Below, in pieces: positions 1 to 60,097 of a stretch of 64,000 nucleotides of DNA. The notes below the pieces were generated by a model. That model searched no databases. It was not told the origin of the DNA and worked only from the letters and a program-made list of their open reading frames with translations. The DNA is from Akkermansia muciniphila. GTDB lineage: Bacteria > Verrucomicrobiota > Kiritimatiellia > RFP12 > UBA1067. The DNA is taken from positions 495 through 64,494 of the forward strand of contig CAMBQV010000001.1 of assembly GCA_945870145.1 (NCBI GenBank), written 5' to 3'. Position 1 is the stretch's first letter. Each line of letters starts with the position of its first letter. A program made the position numbers and the translations under genes.

Positions 1-1074
1 CTTTGGCGAGGTCAAGCCCAGATCCTTGATCAGCATGCCGGGACGGAAATCAAAGACTTCGCCAGACATCAGAATCTTCTCGATCTTCGTCTCTTCAATT
101 TTTCCGGTACCATACGTACTGACATTGATGCTCAGCGGCTTTGCAACACCGATGGCATATGCCACTTGAATCTCGCACTTTTCTGCCAAGCCAGCAGCAA
201 CGATGTTCTTCGCGACATAGCGTCCATAGTAGGCCGCGGAGCGGTCCACTTTCGAGGGATCCTTGCCGGAGAAAGCTCCACCGCCATGGGACCCGACACC
301 GCCGTAGCTGTCAACAATGATCTTACGACCTGTAACACCCGAGTCGCCGCAAGGACCACCGATGACAAAGCGTCCGGTGGGGTTGATGAAGAACTTGGTC
401 TTGTTCGTCAACATCCCTGTGTCTTTCAGGAGAATACGAGCATTCTCTTCCAGATCCTTACGGATTTTTTTAATGGAAATGTCGCGGGTCTGGTGTGAAA
501 CCACCACAGCTGTGATCTCCTTCGCCACCCCATCGTCATGCAGAACGCTCACTTGGGCCTTGGAATCGGGGCGGAGATAAGGGATCTCGCCGTTCTTGCG
601 CAGGGTGGTGAACATCTGGAGCAACTGATGGGAGAAGATGATGGGCGCGGGCATCAACTCCGGAGTGGAGGTCGTTGCATAGCCAAACATCATTCCTTGG
701 TCACCAGCACCTTGTTCTTCGAGCGTCTTCTTGTCCACGCCTTGGTTGATGTCAGGAGACTGTCCATGCAGCGCACTCACATAGTTAAACGTGTCAAAGC
801 TAAAGCCTTCGGAGGGATCATCATAGCCAATGTCGGCGACTACCTCTCGGGCGATGTTCTGCGGGTTGATCTTGTCCCAGTTCTTGCAGGTAACTTCACC
901 TACATTGACCACCAGATTGGTGCCGACAGCAGTCTCGCAACCAACATGTGCATTCGAGTCTTGCGCCAAACAGGCGTCCAGAATCGCATCAGAAATCTGG
1001 TCACAGACCTTGTCTGGGTGACCTTCCGACACGGATTCGGAAGTAAACACATGACGTGTATTCAACTTACTCAT
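1..1074 (-). CDS. metK: S-adenosylmethionine synthase (MetK), C-terminus truncated by window start
   Basis: Reverse-strand translation from ATG (revcomp of 1072-1074) gives MSKLNTRHVFTSESVSEGHPDKVCDQISDAILDACL...GYATTSTPELMPAPI...GGPCGDSGVTGRKIIVDSYGG...GAFSGKDPSKVDRSAAYYGRYVAKNIVAAGLA, canonical MetK motifs. The ORF runs off the window edge, so it is absent from the ORF track. Confidence 0.9.
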   Translation of the reverse strand, partial: MSKLNTRHVFTSESVSEGHPDKVCDQISDAILDACLAQDSNAHVGCETAVGTNLVVNVGEVTCKNWDKINPQNIAREVVADIGYDDPSEGFSFDTFNYVSALHGQSPDINQGVDKKTLEEQGAGDQGMMFGYATTSTPELMPAPIIFSHQLLQMFTTLRKNGEIPYLRPDSKAQVSVLHDDGVAKEITAVVVSHQTRDISIKKIRKDLEENARILLKDTGMLTNKTKFFINPTGRFVIGGPCGDSGVTGRKIIVDSYGGVGSHGGGAFSGKDPSKVDRSAAYYGRYVAKNIVAAGLAEKCEIQVAYAIGVAKPLSINVSTYGTGKIEETKIEKILMSGEVFDFRPGMLIKDLGLTSPK

Positions 1075-1340
1075 CTTATTCCTTTTTTTTGTTTAGTTCT
1101 GCACGCAACATGCGGGCAAAAAAGACAGTTTTCTCCTCAGCCAACAGAATAACGGTAGACTCCGTCCCCGAGAATTACGCAAAAAGAGCCCTTTTGAATA
1201 ATTCACAATCTGTTAACAATGAGAATGTTATAAACATTATAAACAAGGATTATCTCAACAGAAAATCCTCTGCTTTTCAGTGTTAAAATGTACCATAATT
1301 TGGCTTGTTTAGCAAGCAGAACTCTTTCAAATCTCCTGCT

Positions 1341-1369
1341 GACAAAAGCCATCACTTGTGATACTCTTT
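1341..1369 (+). promoter_or_regulatory. candidate sigma70-like promoter (CTGACA-N17-TACTCT) for the lipoprotein gene
   Basis: -35-like CTGACA at 1341-1346, 17-nt spacer, TACTCT at 1364-1369, then GGAGG RBS at 1380-1385 and ATG at 1390. Sequence-only prediction. Confidence 0.3.
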
Positions 1370-1389
1370 CTGACCTTTTAGGAGGTTTT

Positions 1390-1752
1390 ATGACTCATAT
1401 CGTATCCCTATTTCTACTCGCCCTGTTCCTGTTGTCGGCTGGCTGTATCACGTCAACACCTGTGGCTGACTCCCGTGAACCTGAAATTCAGGTCACCTCT
1501 TCAGGGGAGATTCTCTTTGAAGAACAGACGACTACACAAGAGAATATTCTTTCCTTTTTTAAGGAACGCCAAATTACACGCGACCAGACCATCTTTATCT
1601 TGGTTCCCTCGGATCCATCAGAACGAAACACTCAAGTCATGCGCTCGCTTGTCGCCACATTGAAGCGAGCCGGTTATGGGAGAACGGTCTTTACCACGCA
1701 CCGCAAGGCCGTCTCCAATCTGAAAGGGGAAAACACAAAAGTACCCCACTAG
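1390..1752 (+). CDS. hypothetical small lipoprotein
   Basis: GGAGG RBS 5 nt upstream of ATG 1390. N-terminus MTHIVSLFLLALFLLSAGC is a lipoprotein signal with lipobox Cys. The track ORF 1288..1752 is in the same frame with an earlier, less likely start. Confidence 0.5.
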   Translation: MTHIVSLFLLALFLLSAGCITSTPVADSREPEIQVTSSGEILFEEQTTTQENILSFFKERQITRDQTIFILVPSDPSERNTQVMRSLVATLKRAGYGRTVFTTHRKAVSNLKGENTKVPH

Positions 1753-1758
1753 TTATGT

Positions 1759-1933
1759 GCAGCGGCAGTTGGCAGTGGCAGTTGGCAGTTAGTAGACTCC
1801 GTCAACACTAGGGCTACGGAGGGCAGGCGAAAAGCCCGAAACTGTATTTGTCTCTGAGTGCGTTGACGACCAGTGAGCGACGCCGCCCCGCAAGTGAAGC
1901 TAACTGCCAACTGCTACTGCCGACTGCTACTCT
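1759..1933. repeat. intergenic hairpin with arms made of tandem GCAGT(N)GCAGT units (arms 1759-1797 and 1899-1933, about 100-bp spacer, no ORF inside)
   Basis: gcagcggcagttggcagtggcagttggcagttagtag is the imperfect reverse complement of agctaactgccaactgctactgccgactgctactc. The same unit family recurs at 4994-5030, 5434-5479 and 56226-56256. Confidence 0.6.
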
Positions 1934-1949
1934 CCATGAACCCTAATAC

Positions 1950-2939
1950 TTGAAGCCATCCACCTTTAACTTTATGAAGCCAAATCCCCTGCCCATGTTA
2001 GCGTCCTGTGACTTATGCCCTCGGGAATGTCATGTGGATCGGCTTTCCGGAAAGACTGGCTACTGCAAAGCTGGCATGAACCCCCGTGTCTTCCGTCATG
2101 GACCTCATTTTGGGGAGGAACCCCCAATCAGTGGGGCTCGCGGTTCAGGCACAATCTTCTTTTCTCACTGCACGTTACGTTGTATCTATTGCCAAAATCA
2201 CCCGTGGAGTCAGGCTAACCAAGGTGAGGATCTGACGATTGAGGATCTGAGGGAACTCTTCAAGGGAATAGCCCTTCGAGGCTGCCATAACTGGAATCTG
2301 GTCTCCCCTACCCCATGGCTCCCTCAGATAAAAGAAGCGGTAAAACCCTTAATTCAGGCTGGCATCTCTCTCCCATTTGTGTATAATACATCGGGTTTTG
2401 AGTCGCCAAAGGTCTTGGCTGCGTTTTCTGAGCTCATCGATATTGCGCTCGTGGATTTGCGCTATGCCACGGCCGAAGTGGCCTCGGAAGGTTCAGATGC
2501 TACTCACTATGTTGAGGCTTCACGTCAGACATTCCAATGGTTCTGGCAGAGGCTAGGCCCTTTGGTGACCAACGAAGAAGGGCTCGCCAAAAAGGGTGTG
2601 ATCTGTCGCATTTTGGCTTTGCCAGGGCATATTGAGGAGGCGATAGCTAACCTTCATTGGTTGGCAGACACCGTAGGAACCGAAGTGGCGGTGAGCGTCA
2701 TGTCGCAGTATACGCCGGTACATGTGGCGTGCCAGCGCGAGGGGTGGAACAGGAAAGTCTCGCCAGACGAGTATACGCGATTGACTGACGTAGCCGAAGA
2801 ACTCGGCTTCGAGAACGGATGGATACAGGATTTTGAGGGCGATGCGCCGTCCGACCTGCTAGGGCAAGCTATGCCAGCGGGGGAGGGTGTCGTCGGAAGA
2901 GGCGACGAACAACGAACAGGTGAGCAAAGTTTTAGATAA
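1950..2939 (+). CDS. radical SAM protein, PflX-like (COG1313)
   Basis: N-terminal CDLCPRECHVDRLSGKTGYC cluster followed by the radical-SAM CxxxCxxC motif (CTLRCIYC). Start ambiguous among 1950, 1977 and 1995. Confidence 0.7.
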   Translation: MKPSTFNFMKPNPLPMLASCDLCPRECHVDRLSGKTGYCKAGMNPRVFRHGPHFGEEPPISGARGSGTIFFSHCTLRCIYCQNHPWSQANQGEDLTIEDLRELFKGIALRGCHNWNLVSPTPWLPQIKEAVKPLIQAGISLPFVYNTSGFESPKVLAAFSELIDIALVDLRYATAEVASEGSDATHYVEASRQTFQWFWQRLGPLVTNEEGLAKKGVICRILALPGHIEEAIANLHWLADTVGTEVAVSVMSQYTPVHVACQREGWNRKVSPDEYTRLTDVAEELGFENGWIQDFEGDAPSDLLGQAMPAGEGVVGRGDEQRTGEQSFR

Positions 2940-2964
2940 CTGGCTCAAATAAGCGAGGAAGACG

Positions 2965-3726
2965 ATGAGCGGTCATAGTAAATGGGCAACGATTAAGCAT
3001 AAAAAGGGCGCGGCAGATGCCAAGCGCGGAAAAATCTTTTCGAAAATCGCCAAGGAAATGACGATTGTCGCTAAAAACGGTGGCGGTGACCCAGGGAACA
3101 ACCCGACGCTCCGCACGTTGCTCGCCAAGGCAAAGTCCGTGAACATGCCGAATGATAACATCGAGCGTGCTATCAAGAAGGGAACTGGCGAACTGGCAGC
3201 AGACGCACTCGAAGAAATTACGTATGAAGGTTACGCGAGTGGCGGGGTTGGATTGGTCGTTAAGGTTCTGACCGACAACAAGAACCGCGCAGCCTCAGAA
3301 GTTCGAAACATCTTTAAAAAGAATGGTTCCGATTTTTCAGGTCAGGGTTCTGTTTTCCGTAGCTTTGAACGCAAGGGAACTATCATGATCCCAGCAGCCG
3401 CAGACCTCACAGAAGACAAGATCATGGAGGTCGCTTTGGGCGCAGGGGCGGATGACCTTTTGACTGAAGAGGGTGGTTTCACCGTCACCTGTCAACCGAA
3501 TGCCTTTGCTGAAGTCAGTGCGGCCATCGAAGCCGCTGGTATTGCGTTTGACCGCGAAAATTCGCAGGTCGGACTAGTCCCTCTGACAAAAGCAAATGTT
3601 AAAGATGTCGCCGTCGCCAAGGCCGTCAATAAGTTCGTCGGAATGCTGGAAGAGCACGATGACGTACAGGATGTCTACTCCAACATGGAAGTTGATGACT
3701 CCATCGCCGACCAAGTGGATGAATAG
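2965..3726 (+). CDS. yebC: YebC/PmpR family DNA-binding transcriptional regulator
   Basis: MSGHSKWATIKHKKGAADAKRGKIFSKIAKE... full-length YebC signature; 253 aa. Confidence 0.9.
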   Translation: MSGHSKWATIKHKKGAADAKRGKIFSKIAKEMTIVAKNGGGDPGNNPTLRTLLAKAKSVNMPNDNIERAIKKGTGELAADALEEITYEGYASGGVGLVVKVLTDNKNRAASEVRNIFKKNGSDFSGQGSVFRSFERKGTIMIPAAADLTEDKIMEVALGAGADDLLTEEGGFTVTCQPNAFAEVSAAIEAAGIAFDRENSQVGLVPLTKANVKDVAVAKAVNKFVGMLEEHDDVQDVYSNMEVDDSIADQVDE

Positions 3727-3865
3727 CGGAATAGCTGGAATAGCGGAATAGCTGGAATAGTGGAATACTGAGAAGCTCCGCAATCGGTGTACAGTTGTCT
3801 GTACTCCATCGTATTGAGCTTTTTAAAATATTCCTACATTCCACTATTCCAACATTCCATAAACA
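3721..3865. repeat. intergenic hairpin with arms of tandem GGAATAG(C/T) units (3721-3770 and 3828-3865), no ORF inside
   Basis: gaatagcggaatagctggaatagcggaatagctggaatagtggaatactg pairs with ttcctacattccactattccaacattccat. A related one-sided copy is at 27037-27078. Confidence 0.55.
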
Positions 3866-3891
3866 TTATACTCAAGGGGTGCTGTCTCTCA

Positions 3892-4988
3892 TGCGTATTC
3901 TTTCACGCTATATTCTTCGTGAATTTTTGGTGCCCGTGGTATATTGCCTAACCATGTTTTTGGGCATCTATATCCTGTTTGATTTGCTTAGCTCTTTTGA
4001 TGAATTGCTCGCGGCTAAGCCACCCTTCCTCACTGTACTCGCTTACTTTATTGGATACCTCTCTCCCTACTTTATCTATCTCTTTCCCGCGACGCTGATG
4101 CTCTCAGCGCTCTACACGATGTGGAATTTCTGCCGTCACAGTGAAGTCACCGCGATGCGCGCAAATGGGATTGGGTTCATCGTCATTGTACGTCCTCTAT
4201 TACTCGTCGCCACCTGCGCCATGATTCTGGTCGCCGTCCTGAATGAGGTATACACGCCAGGGGCTGCGGAGTGGGCATCGAAATTCAAGCATGATGATTT
4301 CAAGCAGAACACGAAGACCCTCTGCGATTTCGTGGTCTACAAAAACCAGCTGGAACACCGTTACTGGACGATCAATCGCATGGATACCCAAAAACCCGGC
4401 ATCCTGGAGGGCGTAGTGCTCACGCTGCTCCGAGAGGACGGGAGCTTAATGCTGAAGATCACGGCCCGACGAGCTGAATATCTCGATGGCGTGTGGTGGT
4501 TCTTTAATCCCCAATATCAGTACTTTGATGAACTCAACGAGCCCGTCGCCAACCCTTATAAGGCTCTAGAGTCCCTCTCAATCCGTTCGTTCCCGGAGCT
4601 TTCCGAGACGCCTCGTGATTTTTTGGTCATGAATAAAAAACCCGAGCATAGCACAACACGGGACCTGTTGGTTGACCTAAAACAAAATTCACTTCTCAGC
4701 AAGCAGGAAAGATGTGTCAAGCTCTATGATATTGGAGCGCGTCTCATCGCGCCGTTTTCCTGTCTGGTCATCACGCTCTTTGCGATTCCAGCAGGGGTTG
4801 TCACAGGACGTCAAAGTGTATTCTTTGGTATCGTCTCTGCGGTGGCCATGTTTTTCTCCTTTTATGGGACGGTCATTCTCTGCGAAATCCTCGCAAAAAA
4901 CATGTTTCTCCCTGTCTCCTTTGCGGTCCTCTTCCCAAATCTATTATTCCTCTGCATCGGGATCTATCTCTTCTACCGCCAGCGGTAA
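3892..4988 (+). CDS. LptF/LptG family LPS export permease (YjgP/YjgQ)
   Basis: MRILSRYILREFLVPVVYCLTMFLGIYILFDLL... typical LptF/G N-terminus with 6 TM segments. The track ORF starts earlier at 3795 inside the repeat; ATG 3892 preferred. Confidence 0.8.
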
Positions 4989-4993
4989 AGGGT

Positions 4994-5479
4994 CAGTTGG
5001 CAGTGGGCAGTAGCAGTCGGCAGTGGCAGTTTTTATTACAACTTGTCTGAGCAGAGAACACCAAATTTCTCGGGGTGATCCATCATATATCCCAAAAGTT
5101 TTCCAACATCTCCATAACGGGAAGCGAGTTGCTCAAATTTTTCTGGTGTTATGTAACCGCAATCCTTTGCAAAGCGCAACCAAACACCTGTCTCACTTGC
5201 TTCGCCATCTGCATCTGTAAGTTTCGATAAGTAATGCTTCAGATAACTTCTCTTACGATAGGCTTCAGCCGTATTCGCGCATACCGAACGAGATGAACGT
5301 CGAATCTGATCAGTCAGCGAATACCTTTCCTCAACTGGAAAGTTTTTTGACAATTCAAAAATCTGCATTGCGCCTTCGTAAGCTAATTCAAAAACCTTTA
5401 ACCCTTCAACACCTTTTTGCATCTCTATCCTTTCACTGCCGACTGCTACTGCCAACTGCTACTGCCGACTGCTACTGCC
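4994..5479. mobile_element. IVS-like hairpin element: GCAGT-repeat inverted arms (4994-5030 and 5434-5479) enclosing a four-helix-bundle protein gene
   Basis: Left arm cagttggcagtgggcagtagcagtcggcagtggcagt is the reverse complement of right arm cactgccgactgctactgccaactgctactgccgactgctactgccc. The enclosed gene belongs to the 23S-rRNA intervening-sequence protein family. Confidence 0.5.
5036..5422 (-). CDS. four helix bundle protein (23S rRNA intervening-sequence protein / DGR Avd-like family, PF05635/TIGR02436-like)
   Basis: MQKGVEGLKVFELAYEGAMQIFELSKNFPVEERYSLTDQIRRSSRSVCANTAEAYRKRSY... The ERYSLTDQIRRSSRSVxANIAE motif is diagnostic. The track ORF extends to 5455 into the repeat; ATG at 5422 preferred. 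Confidence 0.8.
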   Translation of the reverse strand: MQKGVEGLKVFELAYEGAMQIFELSKNFPVEERYSLTDQIRRSSRSVCANTAEAYRKRSYLKHYLSKLTDADGEASETGVWLRFAKDCGYITPEKFEQLASRYGDVGKLLGYMMDHPEKFGVLCSDKL

Positions 5480-5484
5480 CTCCC

Positions 5485-6375
5485 TTACTCGACATTCTGG
5501 ACCTGTTCACGGGCGGCTTCTAGTCCAGCCTTAAAGACAATCACGAGGCGTGTAATTTCGGCATCATTTGCCTTCGAGCCTGTCGTGTTAATCTCTCGAA
5601 ACATCTCTTGGCAGAGAAAGTCGAGTGTGCGACCTGAGGCGTGACCTTCCAGAAGCGCCTTCTCGACTTGCACAAAGTGACTGGCGAGTCGGGTCATCTC
5701 CTCGCTGACATCACAGCGATCAGCAAACACCGCAACCTCGCGCGCGAGCAAGGCGGGATCGACCACGTTCTTTGTGCCGTCCCCCAGCAACTCTACCAGA
5801 CGCTTTTCAAGCGTGGACTGATACCGTTTGGGCACTGCCAAGGCTAACGGTGCAAGCGCCTCGCTCAAAACCTTCAGCTCTTGAAAACGTTGCTTTAGGT
5901 CCACAGCCAAGGCCTCGCCTTCATGGGCACGCATCTGGCAAAGCTTCTCTAAGGCAAGCTTGGTCGCCTTCTCAAGCAAACCCCACAACGCCTCTGGGTC
6001 TTCAAAAAGCGCGATGTTATTCATGGCCTCTGGAAGTTGTAAGAGAGACGTGATCGAGAGATCATCCGTGAGCGCCAGTTGGCCTGCAGCCTCTCGCAAC
6101 TCGGCGATCTGCGCCTTGACACGTTCCATATTCAAAAGGCGTGACGTCTGCCCCTCTTGCGCGGCCTTGACCATGACGTTCCCCTTCACATACCCGCGTG
6201 AGATCCTTGCATGCAACAGTGCATGAATCTTGGACTCCAGACAGCCCAATTCTCGGGGGAGCGAGAGCGAACAATCAAACTGTTTGCGATTCACGGTACT
6301 GAGCTCAACAACAACTTTAATCCCTTGCTCACTGATCTCGCCTCGCCCGAAGCCTGTCATGCTGATAATAGCCAT
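5485..6375 (-). CDS. yicC: YicC/YloC family endoribonuclease
   Basis: MAIISMTGFGRGE... N-terminal YicC signature plus C-terminal DUF1732-like region; 296 aa. Confidence 0.85.
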   Translation of the reverse strand: MAIISMTGFGRGEISEQGIKVVVELSTVNRKQFDCSLSLPRELGCLESKIHALLHARISRGYVKGNVMVKAAQEGQTSRLLNMERVKAQIAELREAAGQLALTDDLSITSLLQLPEAMNNIALFEDPEALWGLLEKATKLALEKLCQMRAHEGEALAVDLKQRFQELKVLSEALAPLALAVPKRYQSTLEKRLVELLGDGTKNVVDPALLAREVAVFADRCDVSEEMTRLASHFVQVEKALLEGHASGRTLDFLCQEMFREINTTGSKANDAEITRLVIVFKAGLEAAREQVQNVE

Positions 6376-6391
6376 ACGTTACCTCGAAGGA

Positions 6392-6429
6392 ATTGCCTTA
6401 TTGCGTGATTGCCTTATTGCCTTATTGAA
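6392..6429. repeat. tandem ATTGCCTTATTGC repeats upstream of kor operon
   Basis: attgccttattgcgtgattgccttattgccttattg. The same unit recurs at 36531-36613. Confidence 0.5.
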
Positions 6430-6573
6430 AATCCAAATACAACATTGGATGTGTTTTATATTTTAACTTTTTTTGATGGAGAAAGCCAATCTGAAAACAT
6501 AAAACAGGCTTGTTATTTTGGCTCATTTGCGTTAAGGTAGAGGTCTATTTTTTTATATCGGAGAACCGAAAAC

Positions 6574-6807
6574 ATGGCGAGTACGGAGACCCTGAGGACA
6601 GGCATTCCCCATCCCGTAATTAATGCAGATGAATGCAAAAGTTGCACGCGGTGTATTGTGGCCTGCCCAAAAAAATGTCTACGCCTCTCTGACCACCTCA
6701 ATCGTCGAGGGGTCAAGCCTGTCGAGTACAGTGGCGAGGGATGCGTCGGCTGTGGCATCTGCTTCTACACCTGTCCGGAACCGTATGTCCTTGTGATCGA
6801 GAAGTGA
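6574..6807 (+). CDS. korD: 2x[4Fe-4S] ferredoxin, delta subunit of 2-oxoacid:ferredoxin oxidoreductase
   Basis: Two CxxCxxCxxxCP motifs ([24 protein letters not shown]); 77 aa; immediately precedes the alpha subunit. Confidence 0.8.
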
Positions 6808-6812
6808 GACCT

Positions 6813-7862
6813 ATGACCAAGTTTATCAAAGGTAATGAAGCGGTCGTTATCGGAGCCCTCTATGCAGGGGCTGATGTCTATTTTGGGTATCCCATCACGC
6901 CCGCCAGTGAGATCGCTCATGCAGCGGCTGACTGGTTCCCGGCCTTGGGACGCGAATTCTTGCAAGCGGAGTGCGAGACCGCCTCGATCAACATGATGTT
7001 TGGGGCAGCTGCAGCGGGTAAACTCGCCATCACCGCCACCTCTGGACCTGGCATGAGCCTCATGCAGGAGGGGCTCTCCTACATGGCTGGTGCGGAACTT
7101 CCAGGCGTGATTGTCAACATCATGCGTGCTGGACCGGGACTCGGAAACGTCTATCCTGAGCAAGCGGACTACAACCAGGCGGTCAAAGGCGGAGGGCACG
7201 GCAACTATCAGTGTGTCGTCCTCGCACCCGCCAGCATTCAAGAAATGTGCGACTTTACCCAGCGCGCCTTTGCTCTCTCCTGTAAGTACCGGACGCCTGC
7301 TATTGTTTTGTCAGATGGCTTGCTCGGTCAGATGATGGAAAACTTAATCCTGCCACAGTCGATCATGCCGCGTCCAGACCTACAGGCTTGGGCCGTAGCG
7401 GGAACCGCTGAGACTCGCAAAAATCTCGTCAGCTCAATCTTTTTAAATGCACCAGAACAAGAGTTGCACAACCAGCGGTTACAAGCCAAGTACGACAGCA
7501 TGCGACCGGATGCGGCGCATGAAACCTACCTCTGTGAAGATGCGGAAGTCGTCTTGGTCTGTTATGGCATCTCCAGTCGCATCGCCCGCACGGCTGCTGA
7601 AACCCTTCGTTCAGAGGGCGTGAAGGCGGGTGTCTTTCGGCCCATCACGCTGAATCCCTTTCCTGCAGAGGCGCTCTGCAAAACCTTGGTAGGACGTAAA
7701 GCCTTAGCAGTGGAACTCAGTTGCGGCCAATTCCGCGATGATCTGCTGATGCATCTTGCTAAGGAAGGGAAACGTTATCAGGAGGTCGCCCTCGTCAATC
7801 ACATGGGGGGCATCGTCATGTCTGTTGAAGAGATCGTCGCTGCAGCAAAGAAGTTGCGATAA
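6813..7862 (+). CDS. korA: 2-oxoacid:ferredoxin oxidoreductase alpha subunit (KorA/VorB-type)
   Basis: MTKFIKGNEAVVIGALYAGADVYFGYPITPASEI...ATSGPGMSLMQEGLSYMAGAELPGVIV. ATG at 6813, 6 nt after the ferredoxin stop. Substrate (2-oxoglutarate versus branched-chain) not resolvable from sequence. Confidence 0.85.
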   Translation: MTKFIKGNEAVVIGALYAGADVYFGYPITPASEIAHAAADWFPALGREFLQAECETASINMMFGAAAAGKLAITATSGPGMSLMQEGLSYMAGAELPGVIVNIMRAGPGLGNVYPEQADYNQAVKGGGHGNYQCVVLAPASIQEMCDFTQRAFALSCKYRTPAIVLSDGLLGQMMENLILPQSIMPRPDLQAWAVAGTAETRKNLVSSIFLNAPEQELHNQRLQAKYDSMRPDAAHETYLCEDAEVVLVCYGISSRIARTAAETLRSEGVKAGVFRPITLNPFPAEALCKTLVGRKALAVELSCGQFRDDLLMHLAKEGKRYQEVALVNHMGGIVMSVEEIVAAAKKLR

Positions 7863-7897
7863 CCGTTGAAAGCCATTGAGAGGAATGTGAGAAAACG

Positions 7898-9304
7898 ATG
7901 ATCACGAAACAAACCCTTGGAATGTATAAGGTCTTCACCCGGGGCGGTGACGCCACCCGCGCAACACACTATTGCGCAGGATGCGGCCATGGCATCATCA
8001 ATAAACTCATTTCCGAAGCCCTCGCAGAGATGGGGCTTCAGGATAAGGCCATCATGGTCGGACCTGTCGGCTGTGGCGTCTTTGGTTATTACTACTGGGA
8101 TTGCGGTAACATCAGCGCGGCTCATGGACGAGCGCATGCCGTGGCCACAGGCGTCAACCGTGTTTTGCACGATTCCGTTGTCCTCTCGTATCAAGGGGAT
8201 GGTGATCTTGGCGCGATCGGCTTTAACAACGCATTTCAAGCGGCAAGTCGAGGGGAACACTTTGCAGCCTTCTTTGTCAACAATGCCACGTATGGCATGA
8301 CTGGTGGACAGATGGCGCCCACGACCCTGCTGGGTATGGAGACCCTGACCTCCCCGCTCGGACGTAGCGCACAACACGATGGGTACCCGCTTCATGTCTG
8401 CGAGGTCTTTAATCAGCTTGCCGGACCTGTTTATATCGAGCGTGTCTCTGTTGCAGATTCCACGCGTATTCTAAAGGCGAAGAAGGCGATCCGAAAGGCG
8501 ATTGAGATCCAGCGCGACAAAAAGGGATATGCCTTTGTCGAAATTATCGCCCCCTGCCCCACCAATATGGCGATCGACGCCATCAAGTCTGCTGAGTTTT
8601 GTATGACGGTCATGGAGAAGGAGTTTCCGCTTCACTGTTTCCGCGATAAGAGCGCAGAGGCACTTCCTCGTGAAGAAGCCCCGACGCCTCCTGACATCAA
8701 TACGTTTTTTGCCGCGGACCAAACCTTGGACGTTCCTGCGGCTTTAACAGACGACAGTTTTGGTGAAGTCCGTCTTAAATTTAGTGGTTTTGGAGGCCAA
8801 GGTATTTTAAGTCTGGGACACTTAGTTGCGGATGCCGCCCGCCTTGAGAGGCGCTTCACCTCTTGGTTTCCGACCTACGGACCTGAACAGCGCGGTGGCG
8901 CGGCAGCCTGCTCGGTCGTAATCTCGGGCAAGCCGATCGGCTCGCCCTCGGTTGACACCCCTGATGTCCTCGTCTGCATGAATCAGCCCTCTTACGAAAA
9001 GTTCGTGGGGAGTGTCGTGCCCGGCGGCACCGTGATCGTAGATGCGACAGTTACGCGCACCATCGAGCCGCCTGCAGGGGTAAAGCTGGTCGTGATGCCT
9101 GCCATCGACCTTTCGACCCAACTGGGCATGCCCAAAGCAGCAAACACTCTAATGCTCGCTGCCCTCTCCAAATATGGCGTGTCGCGTCTCAAACGCGAGA
9201 GTTTGCTCACGATTATGGCAAACAACTTCCGCAAGAAACCCGCCTTCGCCGAAAAAAATCTCGCCCTCTTTGAAGCAGGCGAGAAAAGCGTGGCGAACAC
9301 GTAA
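7898..9304 (+). CDS. korB: 2-oxoacid:ferredoxin oxidoreductase beta (TPP-binding) subunit fused to gamma subunit
   Basis: N-terminus has the TPP-domain CAGCGHG motif. C-terminal 180 aa (VRLKFSGFGGQGILSLGHLVADAA...) is a POR gamma-type domain. Confidence 0.8.
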   Translation: MITKQTLGMYKVFTRGGDATRATHYCAGCGHGIINKLISEALAEMGLQDKAIMVGPVGCGVFGYYYWDCGNISAAHGRAHAVATGVNRVLHDSVVLSYQGDGDLGAIGFNNAFQAASRGEHFAAFFVNNATYGMTGGQMAPTTLLGMETLTSPLGRSAQHDGYPLHVCEVFNQLAGPVYIERVSVADSTRILKAKKAIRKAIEIQRDKKGYAFVEIIAPCPTNMAIDAIKSAEFCMTVMEKEFPLHCFRDKSAEALPREEAPTPPDINTFFAADQTLDVPAALTDDSFGEVRLKFSGFGGQGILSLGHLVADAARLERRFTSWFPTYGPEQRGGAAACSVVISGKPIGSPSVDTPDVLVCMNQPSYEKFVGSVVPGGTVIVDATVTRTIEPPAGVKLVVMPAIDLSTQLGMPKAANTLMLAALSKYGVSRLKRESLLTIMANNFRKKPAFAEKNLALFEAGEKSVANT

Positions 9305-9317
9305 AACGGTATGACGG

Positions 9318-10364
9318 CTAGAAGTATTTCCTGACAGCTTGCTGGAACTGTTCCATGAATAGGGCCTTGAAGTAGGAAACATTGTTCTGTTCATAAAAGA
9401 GCAACATTCCTTTCTTATATTCCACTTCATCCACACTTCGATAGGACAAAGGACAATAATGGTATGCTAGCAAAAGGGCATTGCCAAGAATACGCGACGT
9501 ACGTTTGTTTCCATCTTCAAACGGTTGGATATACGAAAGCATCAGGACGGTGATAAGCGCCTTCTCTATCGGGTGCATCGTCTGATTGACAAGGACGCAT
9601 AAGTCACGCAGGGCCTCTTGGATTTGAAAAACATTATCCAATGGCCTATAGTTTGTCCCTGTAATGCGAACCAAGTTCTTGCGTATGCCATGCATCACCC
9701 CAAGATCTTTGACCAGCAAACGATGAACCTCCTCAATCTTTGCAACCGTGAGTTCTTTGAAAAGATCAGCGCTTTTGATGACAAAGTCCAACGCATCTTT
9801 GTGGTTCAGAATCATGATGGCCTCTTCCTTAGTCTTCCCTGTTGCTTCGACATGTTCTTTTAAGAGTCGCTCCGTATCGAGCAAGGTATAGGTATTACCC
9901 TCAATTTTTGAGGATTTCCAGGAGAGTTCAATGGTCAACCGCTCCAGCTCTTTCTGAAGTACGACAGGTGTGAGGGCCGCCCTGTTCTTCCGATATTGCT
10001 CATTCAGGAGGTCACTTTCACGCTTCTCCTCCTCTGTCAGCAACCCTGTTAAATGTGGCCAAATTTCAAAATTGAAGTTCTCGGATCGCAAGACACGTTG
10101 ATCAGACTCCTGCTCAAAGTAGGACTTCACATCCAAAGTATCGAGAAGGAGCGACCTTGCGGAGGGCTGATAGGTCGTTCCCCTACCCGCTCCGAACTTT
10201 ACAACAAGGCGATCTTCAATTAAAAGCTCCAAATCCCGCAATATTGTAATACGGGAGTTTTTTTCAGAAAAGGCTTTTGCTACAGCGCCCTCAAGCTCCT
10301 GCCGAGAGACCTTCTTTTGTGACTTGATATACCCAAGTATCCACTCTTGCCGTTTATTGTACAT
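9318..10364 (-). CDS. Fic/DOC family protein with N-terminal winged-helix domain and degenerate Fic motif
   Basis: Core IQPFEDGNKRTSRILGNALL aligns to the Fic motif HPFx[DE]GNGRxxR, with His replaced by Gln and the second Gly by Lys. N-terminal region ELEGAVAKAFSEKNSRITILRDLELLIEDRLV is wHTH-like. The track ORF extends to 10409; ATG 10364 (MYNKRQ) preferred because the upstream palindrome would otherwise be coding. Confidence 0.7.
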   Translation of the reverse strand: MYNKRQEWILGYIKSQKKVSRQELEGAVAKAFSEKNSRITILRDLELLIEDRLVVKFGAGRGTTYQPSARSLLLDTLDVKSYFEQESDQRVLRSENFNFEIWPHLTGLLTEEEKRESDLLNEQYRKNRAALTPVVLQKELERLTIELSWKSSKIEGNTYTLLDTERLLKEHVEATGKTKEEAIMILNHKDALDFVIKSADLFKELTVAKIEEVHRLLVKDLGVMHGIRKNLVRITGTNYRPLDNVFQIQEALRDLCVLVNQTMHPIEKALITVLMLSYIQPFEDGNKRTSRILGNALLLAYHYCPLSYRSVDEVEYKKGMLLFYEQNNVSYFKALFMEQFQQAVRKYF

Positions 10365-10378
10365 AGCTAAAAGCTCTT

Positions 10379-10420
10379 TCGTATCATTTTTGCACCCGAA
10401 TCGTATCATTTTTGATACGA
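10379..10420. promoter_or_regulatory. candidate operator: direct repeat TCGTATCATTTTTG x2 (22-bp spacing), the second forming perfect palindrome TCGTATCA-TTTT-TGATACGA
   Basis: Repeats at 10379-10392 and 10401-10414; palindrome at 10401-10420, about 40 bp upstream of the preferred Fic start. Confidence 0.35.
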
Positions 10421-10455
10421 AAGCGCAAGGTCTTTAGCTATATTTGGGGCGAAAT

Positions 10456-13212
10456 TTACGTAAAGAAGGTCTCCACGGAAGCGAGGAGTTCGTCGGGTGA
10501 GGTGATTTTGCGCACGGGGCAGGGCAGGCTGCGGCTGAAGACCGTTCCGTAGCCACGCGTGACGAGCCGCGGGTCAGCCACAATGACAACCCCCTTGTCG
10601 GTACAGGTCCGAATCAGGCGTCCAAAGCCCTGACGGAAACGGATCACAGCCTGCGGCATGGAGAACTCGCGGAAGGAGCTGCCACCTGCTTGGTCGATCT
10701 GCTCGCAACGTGCCTCGACAATAGGGTCCCCCATGGATAAGAAGGGCAAACGCGCCATCACCACACAGCTCAAGGCATCCCCTGCTACATCAACTCCCTC
10801 CCAGAAGGACTGCGCGCCTAAGAGCACACAGGGACCATCCTTGGCTCGGAAAAGACGGGTGATCTGATCCCGCGTGCCACTCGAACCATGGACCAAGAGT
10901 CGAATCCCAGCCTCTCGCAGCGGTGTCTCTAAGAGTTGAACCACCTTCTTCATCATCTCGTAACTGGTAAAGAGTCCCAAGGCGCGACCCTGGGTTTTAA
11001 TAAAGACATCAAGCATGAGCGCACTGAGTTGCTCGACATAACTTCCGCCATCGGATCCCGAGGGCTCCGGCAGGCAGGTCAAGGCATAGGTAGCGCACTG
11101 CCGCACATAATCAAAGGGACTCTCGGCAACACAGGTCACGATACGCCCCTCTTCAACCTTATCGAGTCCCAATCTTTTTCCAATAAACTCAAAACTTCCT
11201 CCCACCCGAAGCGTGGCGGAGCAAAAGATAATCGAAGTCTTCTTGGCATAGAGCCGTTCCGCCAGCGCCGTTGAAATCTTGAGGGGCGCTGCGACTAGGC
11301 TGGCTTGTCCATGCCAAAACCGTCCAGCGGGTTCCGCCCAGAAGACATACGAGGAATCCTGTGCATCCAAGACAAAATTGACCTCTGTCATAAAGCCTTG
11401 AAGCGAGGCGATCGCGCCTTCAATGTTTGAGGCTTGATCCCCATACAAAGCCAATTCGCCCTCAGAGGCTTGACGCAACGTGTCGGCCAGATAGGTCAGC
11501 TGCTCCGACGATTTCTTAACCGCGAGACGCAAGGCTTCACGCTCCTTGGCTAGAGCTTGTTCATCCAAGCGTTTCTCAGCGGAGAGAAAGGCTTTGTTGT
11601 TGAAGATCAGGCGTCTTAAGGGCGGGAGAGCGGACTCTCCAGTCAACATGGCGGGTGTTATTTCCATCCCTTCTGTTTCGCAGCGATATCGGGTGGCGTG
11701 ATTCTCCTCGCCAAGTAATCCAGAGAGGCGTTGAAAGAGCTGATGCGCAACATCATGCACGTCGGAGAGTGCCTGTTTGGAGCCCCGAATATGCTGACGA
11801 ATTTTTTGGGCAACGGTCTCATCATTTGTCAGCGCACCCTTTTCAAGATGGGTGTTCAGCACTTCGAGCGTCCCGCTGCTCCGCTTGCCTTTGGTTCTGC
11901 TCAAGCGATGGAGTAGCTGGCTGAGGCGATATGGCGAGACCTCGACCGAGAGATGGCGCGTGGCAGCCTCTTCCAAGTTATGCGCTTCATCAAAAACCAG
12001 TTGCGCATGCGGGGGAAGCATCCCGCCATCGGCTTGAAGATCAGAAAAGACCAACGCATGATTGGCCACGATGACATGCGCTGCCAAAGCCTTTGCGCGG
12101 GCCTTCTGTAAAAAACAACGCCGATAGAAGCGACAGGCACGACCGGTACACTCCTCACCAACAGAGGCGAGCTTTGACAAAAAAGCAGGTTCTGCATGAC
12201 TCGCCCCAGCAAAGGCATCCAAATCACCATCCGGCGATTGGATCGCCCAGGCGACCACCTCGGTAAAGAGTCTGAGCTCCGGACGATCCATCTCAAACTG
12301 CGAGTGTTCCAACAGGATGCTGAATTGACGCAAGCAGAGATAATTGGAACGCCCCTTCAGGACCGCCAAGCGTAACTGCGAACCCTCTTCCTCGCCAAAT
12401 TCAGCACGGATGGCTTCACGGACCATGGGAAGGTCCTTCTCGATGAGCTGGGACTGGAGATTACGGGTATTGGTGCTGACCACGACAGGCACATCGTTTA
12501 GACGCGCCCAGGCTGCTGCAGGAATGAGATAAGCAAGGCTCTTTCCTACACCTGTACCAGCCTCAACCACCAAATGCTTGCCTTCATTAAACGCACGGAT
12601 GACCGCTTTCAGCATCTGCAATTGTCCAGTCCGCGCCTCATACCCTTTCATGAGTTGAGCAAAGATGCCCCCAGGCATCAAATGGCTGGAGATGCGCTCA
12701 ATGGAGAGTGGTGAGCAGTCCTCATGCCGAGGCTGATCCTTGCGTTCATGATGACTCTGCTCAGCCTTAAAGGACTCCAGCCACGAACCACACTTTGCCC
12801 CTGACTGACGAACACGATGAGCAAAATCCCCAAAGAGTTTGGCCAGGGCTTTATCATCGAGATCACGCAACAAAAGCTCAATAGTCTCCAAAGCCCACAG
12901 CGGAAAAGTGAGCAGGCGTTTCTCAATCTGGAGCCAGACCTTCCAGAGCTCTTCGGAGCTCGGGGTCACCCCCTCCAAAAAGAGTTGTGAGGGCCGTTCT
13001 AGCGGAGCTTCTGGAAAGGCGTAAGCTCTCAACGTCATGATATTGATCATGCGCGCGTGACACTCGGGGAGGTACTCCTCAAACGCGGCGAGGTCATTCG
13101 TCAAATAAAAGGGCTGTTCAGGAGTTGGGGATGTTTTCTGAGGAAAAACAACGAACGCAGGTTTTTTACCTGCGTTTGTTGAGGGAATCCATACAGCCTG
13201 AACAGAGATCAT
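10456..13212 (-). CDS. ATP-dependent DNA helicase, DinG/Rad3 (DEAD_2) family, with about 150-aa N-terminal extension
   Basis: Walker A AGTGVGKSLAYLIPAA and DEAH box VFDEAHNL, with a Cys cluster (CLRQF...C...C). The C-terminal helicase domain ends 4 bp before the upstream gene. Confidence 0.8.
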   Translation of the reverse strand: MISVQAVWIPSTNAGKKPAFVVFPQKTSPTPEQPFYLTNDLAAFEEYLPECHARMINIMTLRAYAFPEAPLERPSQLFLEGVTPSSEELWKVWLQIEKRLLTFPLWALETIELLLRDLDDKALAKLFGDFAHRVRQSGAKCGSWLESFKAEQSHHERKDQPRHEDCSPLSIERISSHLMPGGIFAQLMKGYEARTGQLQMLKAVIRAFNEGKHLVVEAGTGVGKSLAYLIPAAAWARLNDVPVVVSTNTRNLQSQLIEKDLPMVREAIRAEFGEEEGSQLRLAVLKGRSNYLCLRQFSILLEHSQFEMDRPELRLFTEVVAWAIQSPDGDLDAFAGASHAEPAFLSKLASVGEECTGRACRFYRRCFLQKARAKALAAHVIVANHALVFSDLQADGGMLPPHAQLVFDEAHNLEEAATRHLSVEVSPYRLSQLLHRLSRTKGKRSSGTLEVLNTHLEKGALTNDETVAQKIRQHIRGSKQALSDVHDVAHQLFQRLSGLLGEENHATRYRCETEGMEITPAMLTGESALPPLRRLIFNNKAFLSAEKRLDEQALAKEREALRLAVKKSSEQLTYLADTLRQASEGELALYGDQASNIEGAIASLQGFMTEVNFVLDAQDSSYVFWAEPAGRFWHGQASLVAAPLKISTALAERLYAKKTSIIFCSATLRVGGSFEFIGKRLGLDKVEEGRIVTCVAESPFDYVRQCATYALTCLPEPSGSDGGSYVEQLSALMLDVFIKTQGRALGLFTSYEMMKKVVQLLETPLREAGIRLLVHGSSGTRDQITRLFRAKDGPCVLLGAQSFWEGVDVAGDALSCVVMARLPFLSMGDPIVEARCEQIDQAGGSSFREFSMPQAVIRFRQGFGRLIRTCTDKGVVIVADPRLVTRGYGTVFSRSLPCPVRKITSPDELLASVETFFT

Positions 13213-13216
13213 CTGT

Positions 13217-14599
13217 CTATGCCTTTAAGACCCAGCCATTGAACATGGGGGATGCCTTCAGCTTGTCAGCTTCGGGATCGTTCACAAAACACTCGGTCTT
13301 GGGATTCCACTGAATCTTGTTGCGTCCAAGGCGCAACCCGATATTGGCCAAATGCGCAATCGAGATCGAGCGATGTCCAATTTCACACGTGCAGATGGTG
13401 GGTTCGCCGCCGTAGATACAGTCAATGAAGTTGCCCTCATGGCGGGCGCTCTTGTAGAGGCGAACAGACTTGTCATCCAACTTGGTACGGATGAGCTCCG
13501 CGGGCGTGGTCTCAAGATTGCCACGTGTCACAAAGATCTTTTTTCCTCCCTCGCCGTAGAAAGTAATCCCATTCGTAAACGCATCACTCACAAAGACACG
13601 CGTCCCTTCCTCATAGACCACCTCAAAGGAGTAGTGCGCAGCAGTGTTTAGAATCTTGTCGCGAGAGGGCATGTCGCTCTTGAGATTTTCAATTGCGACG
13701 GGGCCCGAGTCATCCTTGCCCAAGGCCCACTGAACAATGTCCAAGTGATGCGCACCCCAGTCCGTAATTGCACCGCCAGAATAATCCAGATTATTACGCC
13801 AGGTCATGTTGCGATGCAAGGCAGGGATGTAAGGGCGTTTCTGAGCTGGGCCCAGCCACAGATTAAAGTCCGTCATCCATTCCGGTATGGGTGCCGGTTC
13901 TTGCGAAAAGTCTGCATCGCTCTTCTTCCAGCGGAAGTGGCCTCCTGGGAGACCGACCTCAATCTTCTCAAGTTTGCCGATCACGCCATTACGAATAAAT
14001 TCGCACGCCATACGAAAATAATTGTCAGAACGTTGCTGGGAGCCGACCTGGAAGGTTACTTGGTTCGCCTTGACCGTATCAGCCATATAACGGCCCTCGG
14101 CAATGCAATAGGACATCGGCTTCTGACCATAAATATGAAGGCCCTTGCTGGCGGCATAGACCGTCTGGAGTCCATGCCAATGATCGGGTGTGCTGATCAG
14201 CACGGCATCTAATTTTTCCTTTTCAATCATCTCTCGAAAATCAACGTGGGTGGTACAGGCCTTGTAGCCTGGCTGGTTTAGCTGTTTGGCATAAAATTCA
14301 TCAATGATTCGCTTTCCGGCAAGACGTCCACCCTTGCGGTTCGGATCTGAAGAATATCCATGACATCCTGTTTCGGAAACAGGATCCGCCACGGAGACGA
14401 CCTGAACCTTGTCGTTATTTAAAAAATTGCCGATGTTATCCCCTGCCATGGTACCAAATCCGATCACCCCGAGCTGGATACGTGCGGAGGGAGCGGGGCG
14501 TCCCTTACCCAAGGCTCCGATCGGAATGATATACGGAGCGACAGCAGCAGTCCCTAATCCTGAAACAAAGGAACGACGTGAAACATGTATTTGATTCAT
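13217..14599 (-). CDS. Gfo/Idh/MocA family oxidoreductase with twin-arginine (Tat) signal
   Basis: SRRSFVSGLGTAAVA Tat motif; Rossmann GxGxxG region; conserved STPDHWH, GxQxRS, VGLPGG and HHLDIVQW blocks shared with the other two paralogs in the window. Confidence 0.8.
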   Translation of the reverse strand: MNQIHVSRRSFVSGLGTAAVAPYIIPIGALGKGRPAPSARIQLGVIGFGTMAGDNIGNFLNNDKVQVVSVADPVSETGCHGYSSDPNRKGGRLAGKRIIDEFYAKQLNQPGYKACTTHVDFREMIEKEKLDAVLISTPDHWHGLQTVYAASKGLHIYGQKPMSYCIAEGRYMADTVKANQVTFQVGSQQRSDNYFRMACEFIRNGVIGKLEKIEVGLPGGHFRWKKSDADFSQEPAPIPEWMTDFNLWLGPAQKRPYIPALHRNMTWRNNLDYSGGAITDWGAHHLDIVQWALGKDDSGPVAIENLKSDMPSRDKILNTAAHYSFEVVYEEGTRVFVSDAFTNGITFYGEGGKKIFVTRGNLETTPAELIRTKLDDKSVRLYKSARHEGNFIDCIYGGEPTICTCEIGHRSISIAHLANIGLRLGRNKIQWNPKTECFVNDPEADKLKASPMFNGWVLKA

Positions 14600-14822
14600 A
14601 ACAGACTCCTGATAGGTGACACCCTTTTGAAAAAGAATCTTTTTAGTATGAACCTACAGCCCTCATAAATCAACAAAAAAGGGGAGTGAAAAACGGGCTC
14701 ATGCTTGTATTCACAACGGAAATACGTTATCCTATGGCACCTATGAACCTCTGTTTTATGACGCATAAAATGGAGTTGTGAAAAATTAACATGCGGAAAC
14801 CCGCATTTAGGAGGAAAACCCC

Positions 14823-26804: not shown

Positions 26805-27036
26805 GCTGGGCGTACTCCTTGTCTCTTATGACATTGATCAGGGCGCCCAGGCGGTCGGCAGTTAAACGATACAGTCCCTCGTGGTGTCAACCCACACACA
26901 ACATGTCGTTGCGTTTCCGCCAGTCCTGTATCGAAGAAATTGTTTTAAAGTGTACCTGATTTTCTCTTCGGATGCCACTCTTTTTAGGTGACAACCGCGG
27001 AACCATGATTTATCCTTAACCCCGACGAAAGATAGA

Positions 27037-27078
27037 CTGGAATATTGGGATGCTGGAACAATGGAATACTGGAAGAGG
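27037..27078. repeat. tandem (C)TGGAATA(T/C)TGG units just upstream of P-type ATPase start
   Basis: actggaatattgggatgctggaacaatggaatactggaagagg; same unit family as the 3721-3865 hairpin. Confidence 0.4.
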
Positions 27079-36530: not shown

Positions 36531-36646
36531 ATTGCCTTATTACCGCTTCGCTTTCGGCGTTCGCCTAATGGTTACGGCTACGTAACGAGCCTCATTGCCT
36601 TATTGCCTTATTTTTAACATTCGTGTGGTTCGTGCCATTCGGATGC
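36531..36646. repeat. ATTGCCTTATT repeats plus dispersed 34-bp repeat (inverted copy of 62586-62616)
   Basis: attgccttatt at 36531 and 36592-36613. cattcgtgtggttcgtgccattcggatgct (36617-36646) is the reverse complement of agcatccgaatagcacgaaccacacgaatg at 62584-62613. Confidence 0.45.
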
Positions 36647-55294: not shown

Positions 55295-55341
55295 CGTCTC
55301 CCCAACTAACGCACTAACGCAATAACGCACTAACACACTTC

Positions 55342-56076: not shown

Positions 56077-56114
56077 AGTTCTCTCCTTAACCTATAACTT
56101 GGCTAAATTATCTC

Positions 56115-56275
56115 GCACAAAGCCACGAAGCCACAAAGAATATGAGACTGAAGCTTCATTTCTTAACTTTGTGGCCTTGAGTCTTTGTGCGATACAGTTA
56201 TTCATTCGTTTATTCCCGGGTCTTAACTGCCAACTGCTACTGCCGACTGCTACTGTGCCGCCCCCAGGCGGCACG
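56115..56275. repeat. intergenic hairpin with CCACAAAG-unit arms (56115-56139 and 56166-56190), then a GCAGT-family tandem repeat (56226-56256) and GC hairpin GTGCCGCC-CCCA-GGCGGCAC (56254-56275)
   Basis: cgcacaaagccacgaagccacaaag pairs with ctttgtggccttgagtctttgtgcg. ctgccaactgctactgccgactgctactg belongs to the same family as 1899-1933 and 5434-5479. Confidence 0.45.
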
Positions 56276-56276
56276 A

Positions 56277-60015: not shown

Positions 60016-60097
60016 CCTCTTTTATTGATGAAAAGATGGTACACCGATTACTCTAAGAATTCAAGCGGATTTTTGTCTCAAGACGAATCAAATATCA

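Follow-up and report, generated by a model that had tools for sequence, protein, structure and literature searches.

Introduction

The closest described relatives of the element reported here are the intervening sequences (IVSs) of 23S rRNA genes that carry an open reading frame (ORF) of the S23p family. In Coxiella burnetii the IVS is 428 nt long, its S23p ORF is sense to the rRNA, and its 28-bp terminal stem is cut by RNase III; two or three tandem GACAGAT heptamers lie just upstream of the ORF start, and the 5′ RNase III cut falls at the start of the first of them (PMC4990558). A preprint reports such ORFs in insertions of both 16S and 23S rRNA genes of bacteria of the candidate phyla radiation (CPR). 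Eighteen 23S_rRNA_IVP genes lying inside cas operons were read as cas-associated, one of them placed between cmr3 and cmr2 and ending 6 nt before cmr2 (PMC3936711). Here we analyse a 64-kb stretch of DNA (the window: 64,000 nt of contig CAMBQV010000001.1) in which a gene of this family, encoding a four-helix-bundle (4HB) protein, is enclosed by long inverted arrays of GCAGT units between the convergent genes yicC and lptF. From comparisons with relatives, with family members in other phyla and with the rRNA copies, the element appears to be an IVS-type cassette in an mRNA context, i.e. a non-rRNA copy of the known ORF-bearing 23S IVS type.

Several other systems share parts of this architecture. 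Avd of Bordetella phage BPP-1 (bAvd) is a distant homologue that probably has the same four-helix-bundle fold, but no bracketing by inverted tandem arrays has been described for Avd genes. Arrays of the heptamer TAACTGA are found in Beggiatoaceae, Cyanobacteria and Bacteroidetes with no link to any gene (MacGregor 2015, PMC4679880). These and the short tandemly repeated repetitive (STRR) sequences of cyanobacteria resemble the arrays studied here in their tandem 7-nt intergenic units, their patchy phyletic spread, their position adjoining start codons and, often, a CAGT/ACTG core (TAACTGA is the complement of TCAGTTA). They are, however, described as direct repeats without a gene-family link, whereas here an inverted pair surrounds one gene family, and the units seen in the window arms (GCAGTAG, GCAGTCG and GCAGTTG) share only the CAGT core with the complement of TAACTGA. 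Miniature inverted-repeat transposable elements (MITEs), repetitive extragenic palindromic (REP) elements and integron cassettes are likewise short intergenic units with terminal inverted repeats in several copies per genome, with gene-less versions alongside and with a promoterless ORF expressed from an outside promoter. The differences are that no target-site duplication is visible here and no cognate transposase, REP-associated tyrosine transposase (RAYT) or integrase was found, that the arms are tandem arrays and not unique terminal inverted repeats or attC sites, and that the gene-less hairpin has a loop showing no relation to the ORF. In the open literature we found no description of inverted tandem arrays around non-rRNA members of the family, of sense co-orientation or of insertion as a unit, though an earlier account in subscription journals is possible; the family-wide build therefore appears to be undescribed.

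A four-helix-bundle gene between inverted GCAGT arrays

The 4HB gene occupies 5036–5422 on the minus strand and encodes 128 aa of the 23S_rRNA_IVP/S23p/TIGR02436 family, which is distantly related to Avd. It starts with an ATG that has AAGGA 8 nt upstream and ends with TAA; an alternative TTG start at 5455 (139 aa) falls within the flanking arm and is unlikely. Both PF05635 of Pfam (E=4.5e-29, 101.2 bits, cut-off 33.8) and TIGR02436 of NCBIfam (E=4.4e-27, 94.4 bits, cut-off 24) match the protein well over their cut-offs, bearing out the family membership proposed in a preliminary description of this DNA, and the diagnostic motif on which that proposal leaned, ERYSLTDQIRRSSRSVCANTAE, is indeed present. 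The family motif has been given as GxxRxxxSxxxNxxE (PMC3936711), and the window protein has DQIRRSSRSVCANTAE, that is RxxxSxxxNxxE with Q replacing the G; R41/R42, S46, N50 and E53 are invariant among 25 aligned 4HB sequences. By sequence similarity the nearest solved structures in the PDB are 2RLD and 2GSC (E ~1e-7), with five chains each, and a homopentamer has been described for 2GSC. Taken by itself, the gene is an unremarkable representative of a known family. Its dN/dS is 0.13 against the orthologue at the same site and 0.075 against a paralogue (dS 0.6–0.7), values that point to strong purifying selection, so that the protein is evidently functional and the ORF kept by selection. No match was obtained in PADLOC, which covers defence systems.

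Could the gene be an orphan avd, left behind by a diversity-generating retroelement (DGR)? Avd models do match the protein weakly (PHROG 3206, 6.9e-13; PF22296, 4.6e-12; NF033474, 3.7e-9), but the equivalog model NF033474 scores 36.8 bits, under its cut-off of 80. A reverse transcriptase (RVT domain) was not found among the ten flanking ORFs at 538–16403, which span ~4.5 kb and 11 kb on its two sides; the neighbours are all housekeeping genes, the insert described below holds only the arms and the ORF, and no close relatives of the protein were found in viral contigs. A search of 4900–5600 for repeats, such as the template and variable repeats (TR/VR) of a DGR, returned the arms. We regard a DGR remnant as very improbable and the reading as close to refuted, in agreement with the preliminary description, which had also set DGRs aside.

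The arms are described here in the sense of the gene. The 5′ arm (5434–5480, minus strand) consists of seven CAGT units spaced 6 or 7 nt, GGGCAGTAGCAGTCGGCAGTAGCAGTTGGCAGTAGCAGTCGGCAGTG, and was found by the repeat search, by Tandem Repeats Finder (TRF) and in the minimum-free-energy (MFE) fold. It begins a few nucleotides past the yicC stop and ends 11 nt before the 4HB ATG. The intervening spacer (5423–5433, minus strand), AAAGGATAGAG, carries the ribosome-binding site (RBS) and is conserved both in an orthologue (locus L115 of our comparison set) and in a paralogue (L086). The 3′ arm (4994–5031, minus strand), AACTGCCACTGCCGACTGCTACTGCCCACTGCCAACTG, recovered by the repeat search, TRF and the fold, extends from 5 nt past the TAA to within 5 nt of the lptF stop, which is on the opposite strand. 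The two form inverted repeats of 26–31 nt with 90–96% complementarity, at the coordinates first proposed for them. In TRF the arrays have a period of 13 nt, corresponding to alternating 6- and 7-nt GCAGT units, with 2.4 and 3.5 copies and 88–93% matches (3.5 copies and 93% in the 5′ arm); the arms had initially been taken for tandem GCAGTN 6-mers, and of this the tandem GCAGT array stands and the strict 6-mer does not. The word itself is not over-represented, since GCAGT and ACTGC occur 52 and 75 times in the window against 64 expected. Clusters of at least four GCAGT/ACTGC are found at only five places in the 64 kb, and four of the five form two inverted pairs. Near-identical variants in the population differ by only 2 adjacent substitutions in the 5′ arm, and array-length polymorphism was not seen.

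When the minus-strand RNA of 4985–5490 is folded in silico, the arms pair into a stem of ~40 bp (−166.4 kcal/mol, z=−4.2), and none of 100 shuffled sequences folds as well, consistent with the extended stem enclosing the ORF that had been envisaged for this locus. Neither the arms nor the hairpins matched a family in Rfam, with E allowed up to 0.5. The 11 nt separating the 5′ arm from the ATG are too few to hold a promoter, and a promoter scan of 4900–5700 returned nothing above shuffle expectation, the one weak sigma-70-like site lying within yicC. An RNase III gene signature was looked for in the window and not found.

Insertion of the cassette between yicC and lptF

The arms and the gene form one inserted unit of 496 nt (4989–5484, minus strand), which is made up of 5′ arm, RBS, ORF and 3′ arm and nothing else. 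It is flanked by the stop codons of lptF (4986–4988, plus strand) and yicC (5485–5487, minus strand). Pfam confirms this neighbourhood as LptF/G (3891–4988, plus strand) and YicC (5485–6375, minus strand), a convergent pair, as had been surmised from the letters. The 4HB ORF is co-oriented with yicC and starts 62 nt past its stop. Homologues of its YicC put the window organism close to the Kiritimatiellota. In relatives whose YicC is 81% (L118, L119 and L121) or 75% (L116 and L117) identical, the gene order is the same but the yicC and lptF stops are only 6 nt apart, with CTGTGG or TCTTGC as the whole spacer, while in a relative with 89% identical YicC (L115/L120) a cassette of 522 nt sits at exactly the same place. 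Judged against these empty sites, the cassette was evidently inserted as one unit. Because the empty site is 6 nt long and contains no array, the arms came in together with the ORF and did not predate it.

The closest homologues of the protein, 91% and 83% identical, are found at another site, between Wzy_C and GHMP-kinase/NTP-transferase genes, with all genes co-oriented and the 4HB gene again between GCAGT-type arms. Since the 91% copy shares a metagenome contig with the window’s own 4HB gene, there are at least two cassettes in one genome.

A Pfam scan of the ten flanking ORFs (538–16403) gave Radical SAM, YebC, LptF/G, YicC, Fic, helicase, GFO/IDH and RNase Y, and the ferredoxin/POR genes at 6574–9304 carry only POR and Fer4 families in precomputed Pfam hits. 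Rfam found no rRNA in the window. Two ribonuclease genes are close to the cassette, the YicC-family endoribonuclease (5485–6375) directly upstream and RNase Y (14823–16403) ~9 kb off; this is probably a coincidence, because the empty site of the relatives has the same yicC.

The same build across the family

To place the locus within its family we used a set in which one genome per species was scanned, giving 80 loci with proteins 54–73% identical to the window 4HB protein and spanning Bacteroidota, Acidobacteriota, Lentisphaerota, Chloroflexota, Planctomycetota, Cloacimonadota, Kiritimatiellales and others. As far as can be judged from these sequences, family genes with the same build occur in seven or more bacterial phyla. 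Of 84 homologous genes, 48 are flanked by significant inverted arms (median length 32 nt); among control ORFs from the same loci this holds for 1 of 106. The share of sequence in tandem repeats is 33–39% within 100 nt of the gene on either side, ~2% at distances over 300 nt and 1.3% within the gene. The 120-nt flanks pair with each other at a median duplex energy of −57 kcal/mol, compared with −35 for controls (p=1e-14).

The arrays also have a common composition and polarity. CAGT is the top enriched 4-mer upstream of family genes (9.6-fold), and in 192 of 199 cases consecutive CAGTs are 6 or 7 nt apart. A CAGT array upstream with an ACTG array downstream is the order at 49 of 81 genes, and the reverse order is seen at 2–3 of 81. 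Where a locus uses unusual units (CGGTAAG, GAGCGTG or GGCAGAA), these are matched by their complement in the other arm, so that units co-vary between the arms of one locus. An array length set by the pentamer was considered as well and rejected, as the longest CAGT runs are spread over 3–15 with no peak at 5.

A further regularity concerns the host genes. The upstream neighbour is co-oriented with the 4HB gene in 71 of 77 cases and the downstream neighbour in 66 of 78. Between the stop of the upstream gene and the 4HB ATG lie a median of 84 nt, which the arm mostly occupies, leaving no room for a promoter of its own; the 4HB gene therefore depends on the host transcript. Cyanobacterial plasmids carry copies of the same build (Nostoc punctiforme PCC 73102 pNPUN02, Nostoc sp. 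MS1 and Leptolyngbya BL0902), with arm units of GCAGGGG or GGGGAGA type. A plasmid of Oscillatoria nigro-viridis PCC 7112 (L124) carries a copy that departs from the general build, with G-rich arrays (GGGAGAGT/GGGGAGAG) and an upstream neighbour encoded on the other strand.

Relation to 23S rRNA intervening sequences and a proposed mechanism

A direct link to rRNA is provided by Azospirillum lipoferum 4B, where a homologous ORF (37.6% identity, L126) was found in a stretch of the plasmid AZO_p2 without annotated genes. Rfam identifies the whole of that stretch as a 23S rRNA gene (LSU, 2108 bits), to which the ORF is sense. The ORF is located between GTACCGAAGCTGCGGA and GTGGTAGCGGAGCG of the 23S gene, which by comparison with the E. 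coli 23S sequence is the helix-45 site. Its arms, TTCAGAGGACGGATGACAGAGGACGGAGGACAGA and TCCGTCCTCTGTCTTCTGTCATCCGTCTTCTGA, are tandem GGACRGA heptamers that form a duplex of ~32 bp (−66.8 kcal/mol). None of 121 loci checked contained rRNA motifs, and this distant copy is the only one found in rRNA.

The ORF-bearing 23S IVSs (Coxiella, Leptospira and Azospirillum) have in common with the window element the protein family, an ORF sense to the host transcript, a unit of ~430–500 nt and arms of ~28–45 bp that tightly bracket the ORF. Heptamer-like units with a CAG core recur as well: GACAGAT upstream of the Coxiella ORF, GGACRGA in both Azospirillum arms and GCAGTNN here. Two differences stand out. 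The window unit has the mRNA of yicC as its host, at the 3′ end and facing the convergent lptF, and not helix 9, 25 or 45 of 23S rRNA, and the window ORF has a dN/dS of ~0.1 and a good RBS, while that of Coxiella is decaying and apparently not translated. In its architecture the window cassette thus agrees with these IVSs throughout, the host gene excepted; the RNase III step is carried over by analogy. This shared build is the strongest support for calling the element IVS-like, as the preliminary description had done; the clean insertion against empty sites speaks for the same conclusion. The further label ‘autonomous’ is not supported: no recombinase or transposase is present and no target-site duplication is visible.

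The reading that we favour, at a probability of roughly 0.55, is that the cassette is transcribed from the host, that its arms pair in the RNA and that RNase III processes the duplex as it does in the rRNA copies. Transcription would reach the window cassette by read-through, at the end of the yicC mRNA; at most other loci it would come from a surrounding operon. The arms would then pair to a duplex of ~40 bp, setting the ORF apart as a closed loop domain, and RNase III would most likely cut this duplex, by analogy with the rRNA IVSs. Such a cut would release a 4HB mRNA with base-paired ends and leave the host transcript ending in, or closed by, the lower stem. Translation would use the RBS at the stem base, and the 4HB protein may bind nucleic acid as in Avd. 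The foundation of this mechanism consists of the insertion as a unit, the family-wide arms, the sense co-orientation, the missing room for a promoter, the purifying selection and the matching architecture of a genuine IVS. On that foundation we infer the pairing of the RNA in vivo, the cleavage by RNase III, the way of insertion and any benefit to the host.

Evidence against this mechanism and a possible role of the arms in DNA

A number of observations weigh against the proposed mechanism. Excised Coxiella IVS RNA is rapidly degraded and its protein apparently not made (PMC4990558); the rRNA precedent therefore does not explain the conservation of the ORF here. A stem selected at the RNA level would be expected to show an excess of G:U pairs, but in transcribed sense the arm mismatches comprise 61 G:U, 53 A:C and 125 of transversion type, without such an excess, and the arms therefore give no support for RNA-level selection. 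In some orthologues (L087) pairing is confined to the CAGT cores and leaves out the spacers. The 4HB arrays of the Oscillatoria plasmid (L124, 1330–2010) are direct, not inverted, and on a plasmid of Pseudanabaena galeata (L127) a 30%-identical 4HB gene lies directly after cas1-cas2 without clear arms. No target-site duplication was seen on comparing occupied with empty yicC|lptF sites, and the Pfam scan found no recombinase or transposase in the insert or among the neighbouring genes.

The last point of this kind is that the arrays are not confined to the cassette. A 29-nt sequence, ACTGCCAACTGCTACTGCCGACTGCTACT, is identical at 5448–5476, within the 5′ arm, and at 1903–1931 and 56226–56254. 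A metagenome scan for its first 25 nt returned 25 stretches, or ~21 distinct loci, mostly from two samples that also hold the window organism; one of these loci is the cassette, one is a gene-less hairpin, and the rest are solo intergenic arrays. Because the same 25-mer is mostly solo and gene-less at ~20 other loci, the arrays have a life of their own, and describing them simply as arms enclosing an ORF is not sufficient, most of the other copies being solo. The cassette is not an isolated copy, which would have counted against the preliminary description: a second cassette (91% identical in protein) is present in the same genome, and ~20 further loci with the identical 25-mer array in its population. 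None of the other copies found is inside rRNA.

The dispersed arrays, the lack of G:U bias and the L087 cores make it possible that the units have a role in DNA or in protein binding. The arms could then be inverted arrays of polar protein-binding sites (CAGT plus 2–3 nt), similar to the subterminal repeats of transposons and recognised by a recombinase acting in trans or by the pentameric 4HB protein, with the RNA stem as a by-product. The conservation of the CAGT core and of its polarity across phyla (40 against 2 for the reverse order) while spacers vary would fit such a role, as would the complementarity of only the cores in L087, the arms free of G:U bias, the identical 25–29-mers at ~20 loci (many of them solo), the clean insertion of the unit and the fact that gene-less hairpins with the same array have also been gained and lost. 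What argues against it is the same absence of a transposase or recombinase in or beside the cassette and of a target-site duplication, together with two features that point to RNA: the sense co-orientation in 71 of 77 cases, combined with rRNA copies that are known RNase III substrates, and the arms with unusual units, which still match each other, as a stem requires. We consider an action of the arms on DNA possible but rather unlikely.

Dispersed arrays and gene-less hairpins

The window contains ~13 tandem arrays in its 64 kb, five inverted pairs and ~8 solo arrays, and all are intergenic. The gene-less hairpin (1759–1931, no strand assigned) encloses a 112-nt loop between arms that belong to the same family of GCAGT arrays (TRF; fold z=−5.9). 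It lies between a 154-aa ORF and a radical-SAM gene, and its loop shows internal pairing and no Rfam match. The hairpin is absent in one relative (L121), where the spacer is 24 nt, and is replaced in another (L120) by other arrays (CGACAAAG and CCTGAAC). We considered that it might be a deletion derivative of the cassette and rejected this, since the loop aligns with a score of 9 against a shuffle mean of 9.7 and no frame resembles the 4HB protein.

The solo GCAGT array at 56225–56255 (no strand assigned) has no inverted partner and is part of a recurrent intergenic module, in which about half of the solo arrays are found and which precedes genes at ~10 different loci of this population. Read towards the downstream gene, the module consists of a small GC hairpin (GCCGCCYGGGGGCGGC), the GCAGT array, a conserved motif of ~28 nt (CCCCGGGAATAAACGAAYGARTAACTTT), an octamer-array hairpin (e.g. 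CACAAAGC) and the gene start; besides the window (56100–56276) it is present at L090, L091, L093, L094, L096, L098, L105, L106 and L110. It may represent a promoter or 5′-UTR element. In L120 (7342–7413) the 3′ arm of the orthologous cassette is followed by an extra GC hairpin (GCCGTCCCTGCCGGGACGGC), the same pairing of GC hairpin and GCAGT array as beside solo arrays.

The spacer between yebC and lptF holds a tandem-unit hairpin in every relative examined (window 3721–3859; L115 5011–5164; L116 4495–4611; L118 4501–4605), and its units differ: GGAATAGC, GGTTCAG, TAAAATC and TCAGTAA. This pattern suggests rapid turnover or repeated replacement at one position. In the window the first unit of this hairpin and the yebC stop codon overlap (GAATAG). 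A (ATTGCCTT)n array (6392–6427) directly precedes the yicC start and is kept in an 89% relative (L120), while an 81% relative has (TGGAATG)n upstream of yicC at the same place; the ATTGCCTT array also occurs near GCAGT arrays at other loci of the population (L102, L105 and L108).

Are the arms, then, just generic intergenic hairpins of the host, STRR-like terminators or mRNA stabilisers, with the 4HB gene merely inside one or prone to land there? The abundance of intergenic arrays in the window, the hairpin in the yebC/lptF spacer of every relative with its changing units and the common occurrence of solo GCAGT arrays in the population would all be expected in that case. However, the empty yicC|lptF site is only 6 nt without any array, so the arms came with the ORF. 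Arms accompany 48 of 84 family genes and 1 of 106 control ORFs, CAGT-type arrays are found in only 16 of 2117 background windows, and the same build exists inside 23S rRNA. We therefore think this explanation improbable.

Several further features of the window complete the inventory. An inverted pair of tandem arrays at 60934–60967 and 61076–61157 is built from a 16-nt unit (CGACTGACCGATTAAA/TCGTTCAGTCGATCAG) with ~108 nt between the arms, and a related solo array (60097–60132) lies 800 nt away. Solo arrays with 7–8-nt units are located at 55305–55339, 27036–27074, 36589–36612 and 62619–62656 (ACTAACGC, ACTGGAAT, GCCTTATT and AACATTG). A ZMP/ZTP riboswitch (RF01750, 55.4 bits) is found at 26838–26937 on the minus strand, upstream of a 748-aa ORF (24558–26804).

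Implications

The function of the S23p/4HB ORF of rRNA IVSs has been an open question since the early 1990s, and thousands of genes bear the annotation ‘four helix bundle protein’ and nothing more. The heptamer arrays of cyanobacteria, Beggiatoaceae and Bacteroidetes are likewise unexplained. Our results tie 4HB genes, IVSs and arrays together, and the tie rests on the IVS-like arm–ORF–arm build, on insertion as a unit at transcribed, co-oriented sites, on purifying selection and on arms drawn from dispersed array families.

A wider generalisation, which we offer tentatively and do not think likely in its entirety, is that S23p genes with inverted CAGT-type arrays make up a large, so far unrecognised class of insertional cassettes that ride host transcripts in many phyla. 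The 23S IVSs would then be the copies that landed in rRNA, and the 23S_rRNA_IVP genes of cas operons would be hitch-hikers; solo arrays and gene-less hairpins, the STRR- and TAACTGA-like ones included, would be products, relics or targets in trans, and the pentameric protein would bind the units. For cas-adjacent 4HB genes, hitch-hiking may be the simpler reading, though the Pseudanabaena copy has no clear arms.

What emerges is a testable model of a cassette that would ride host transcripts and isolate itself by a long stem, and cultured hosts are at hand in Nostoc punctiforme PCC 73102 (pNPUN02) and Azospirillum lipoferum 4B. For the interpretation of genomes the model carries a caution: 4HB genes should not be read as functional partners of the operons that surround them, for example in cas loci.

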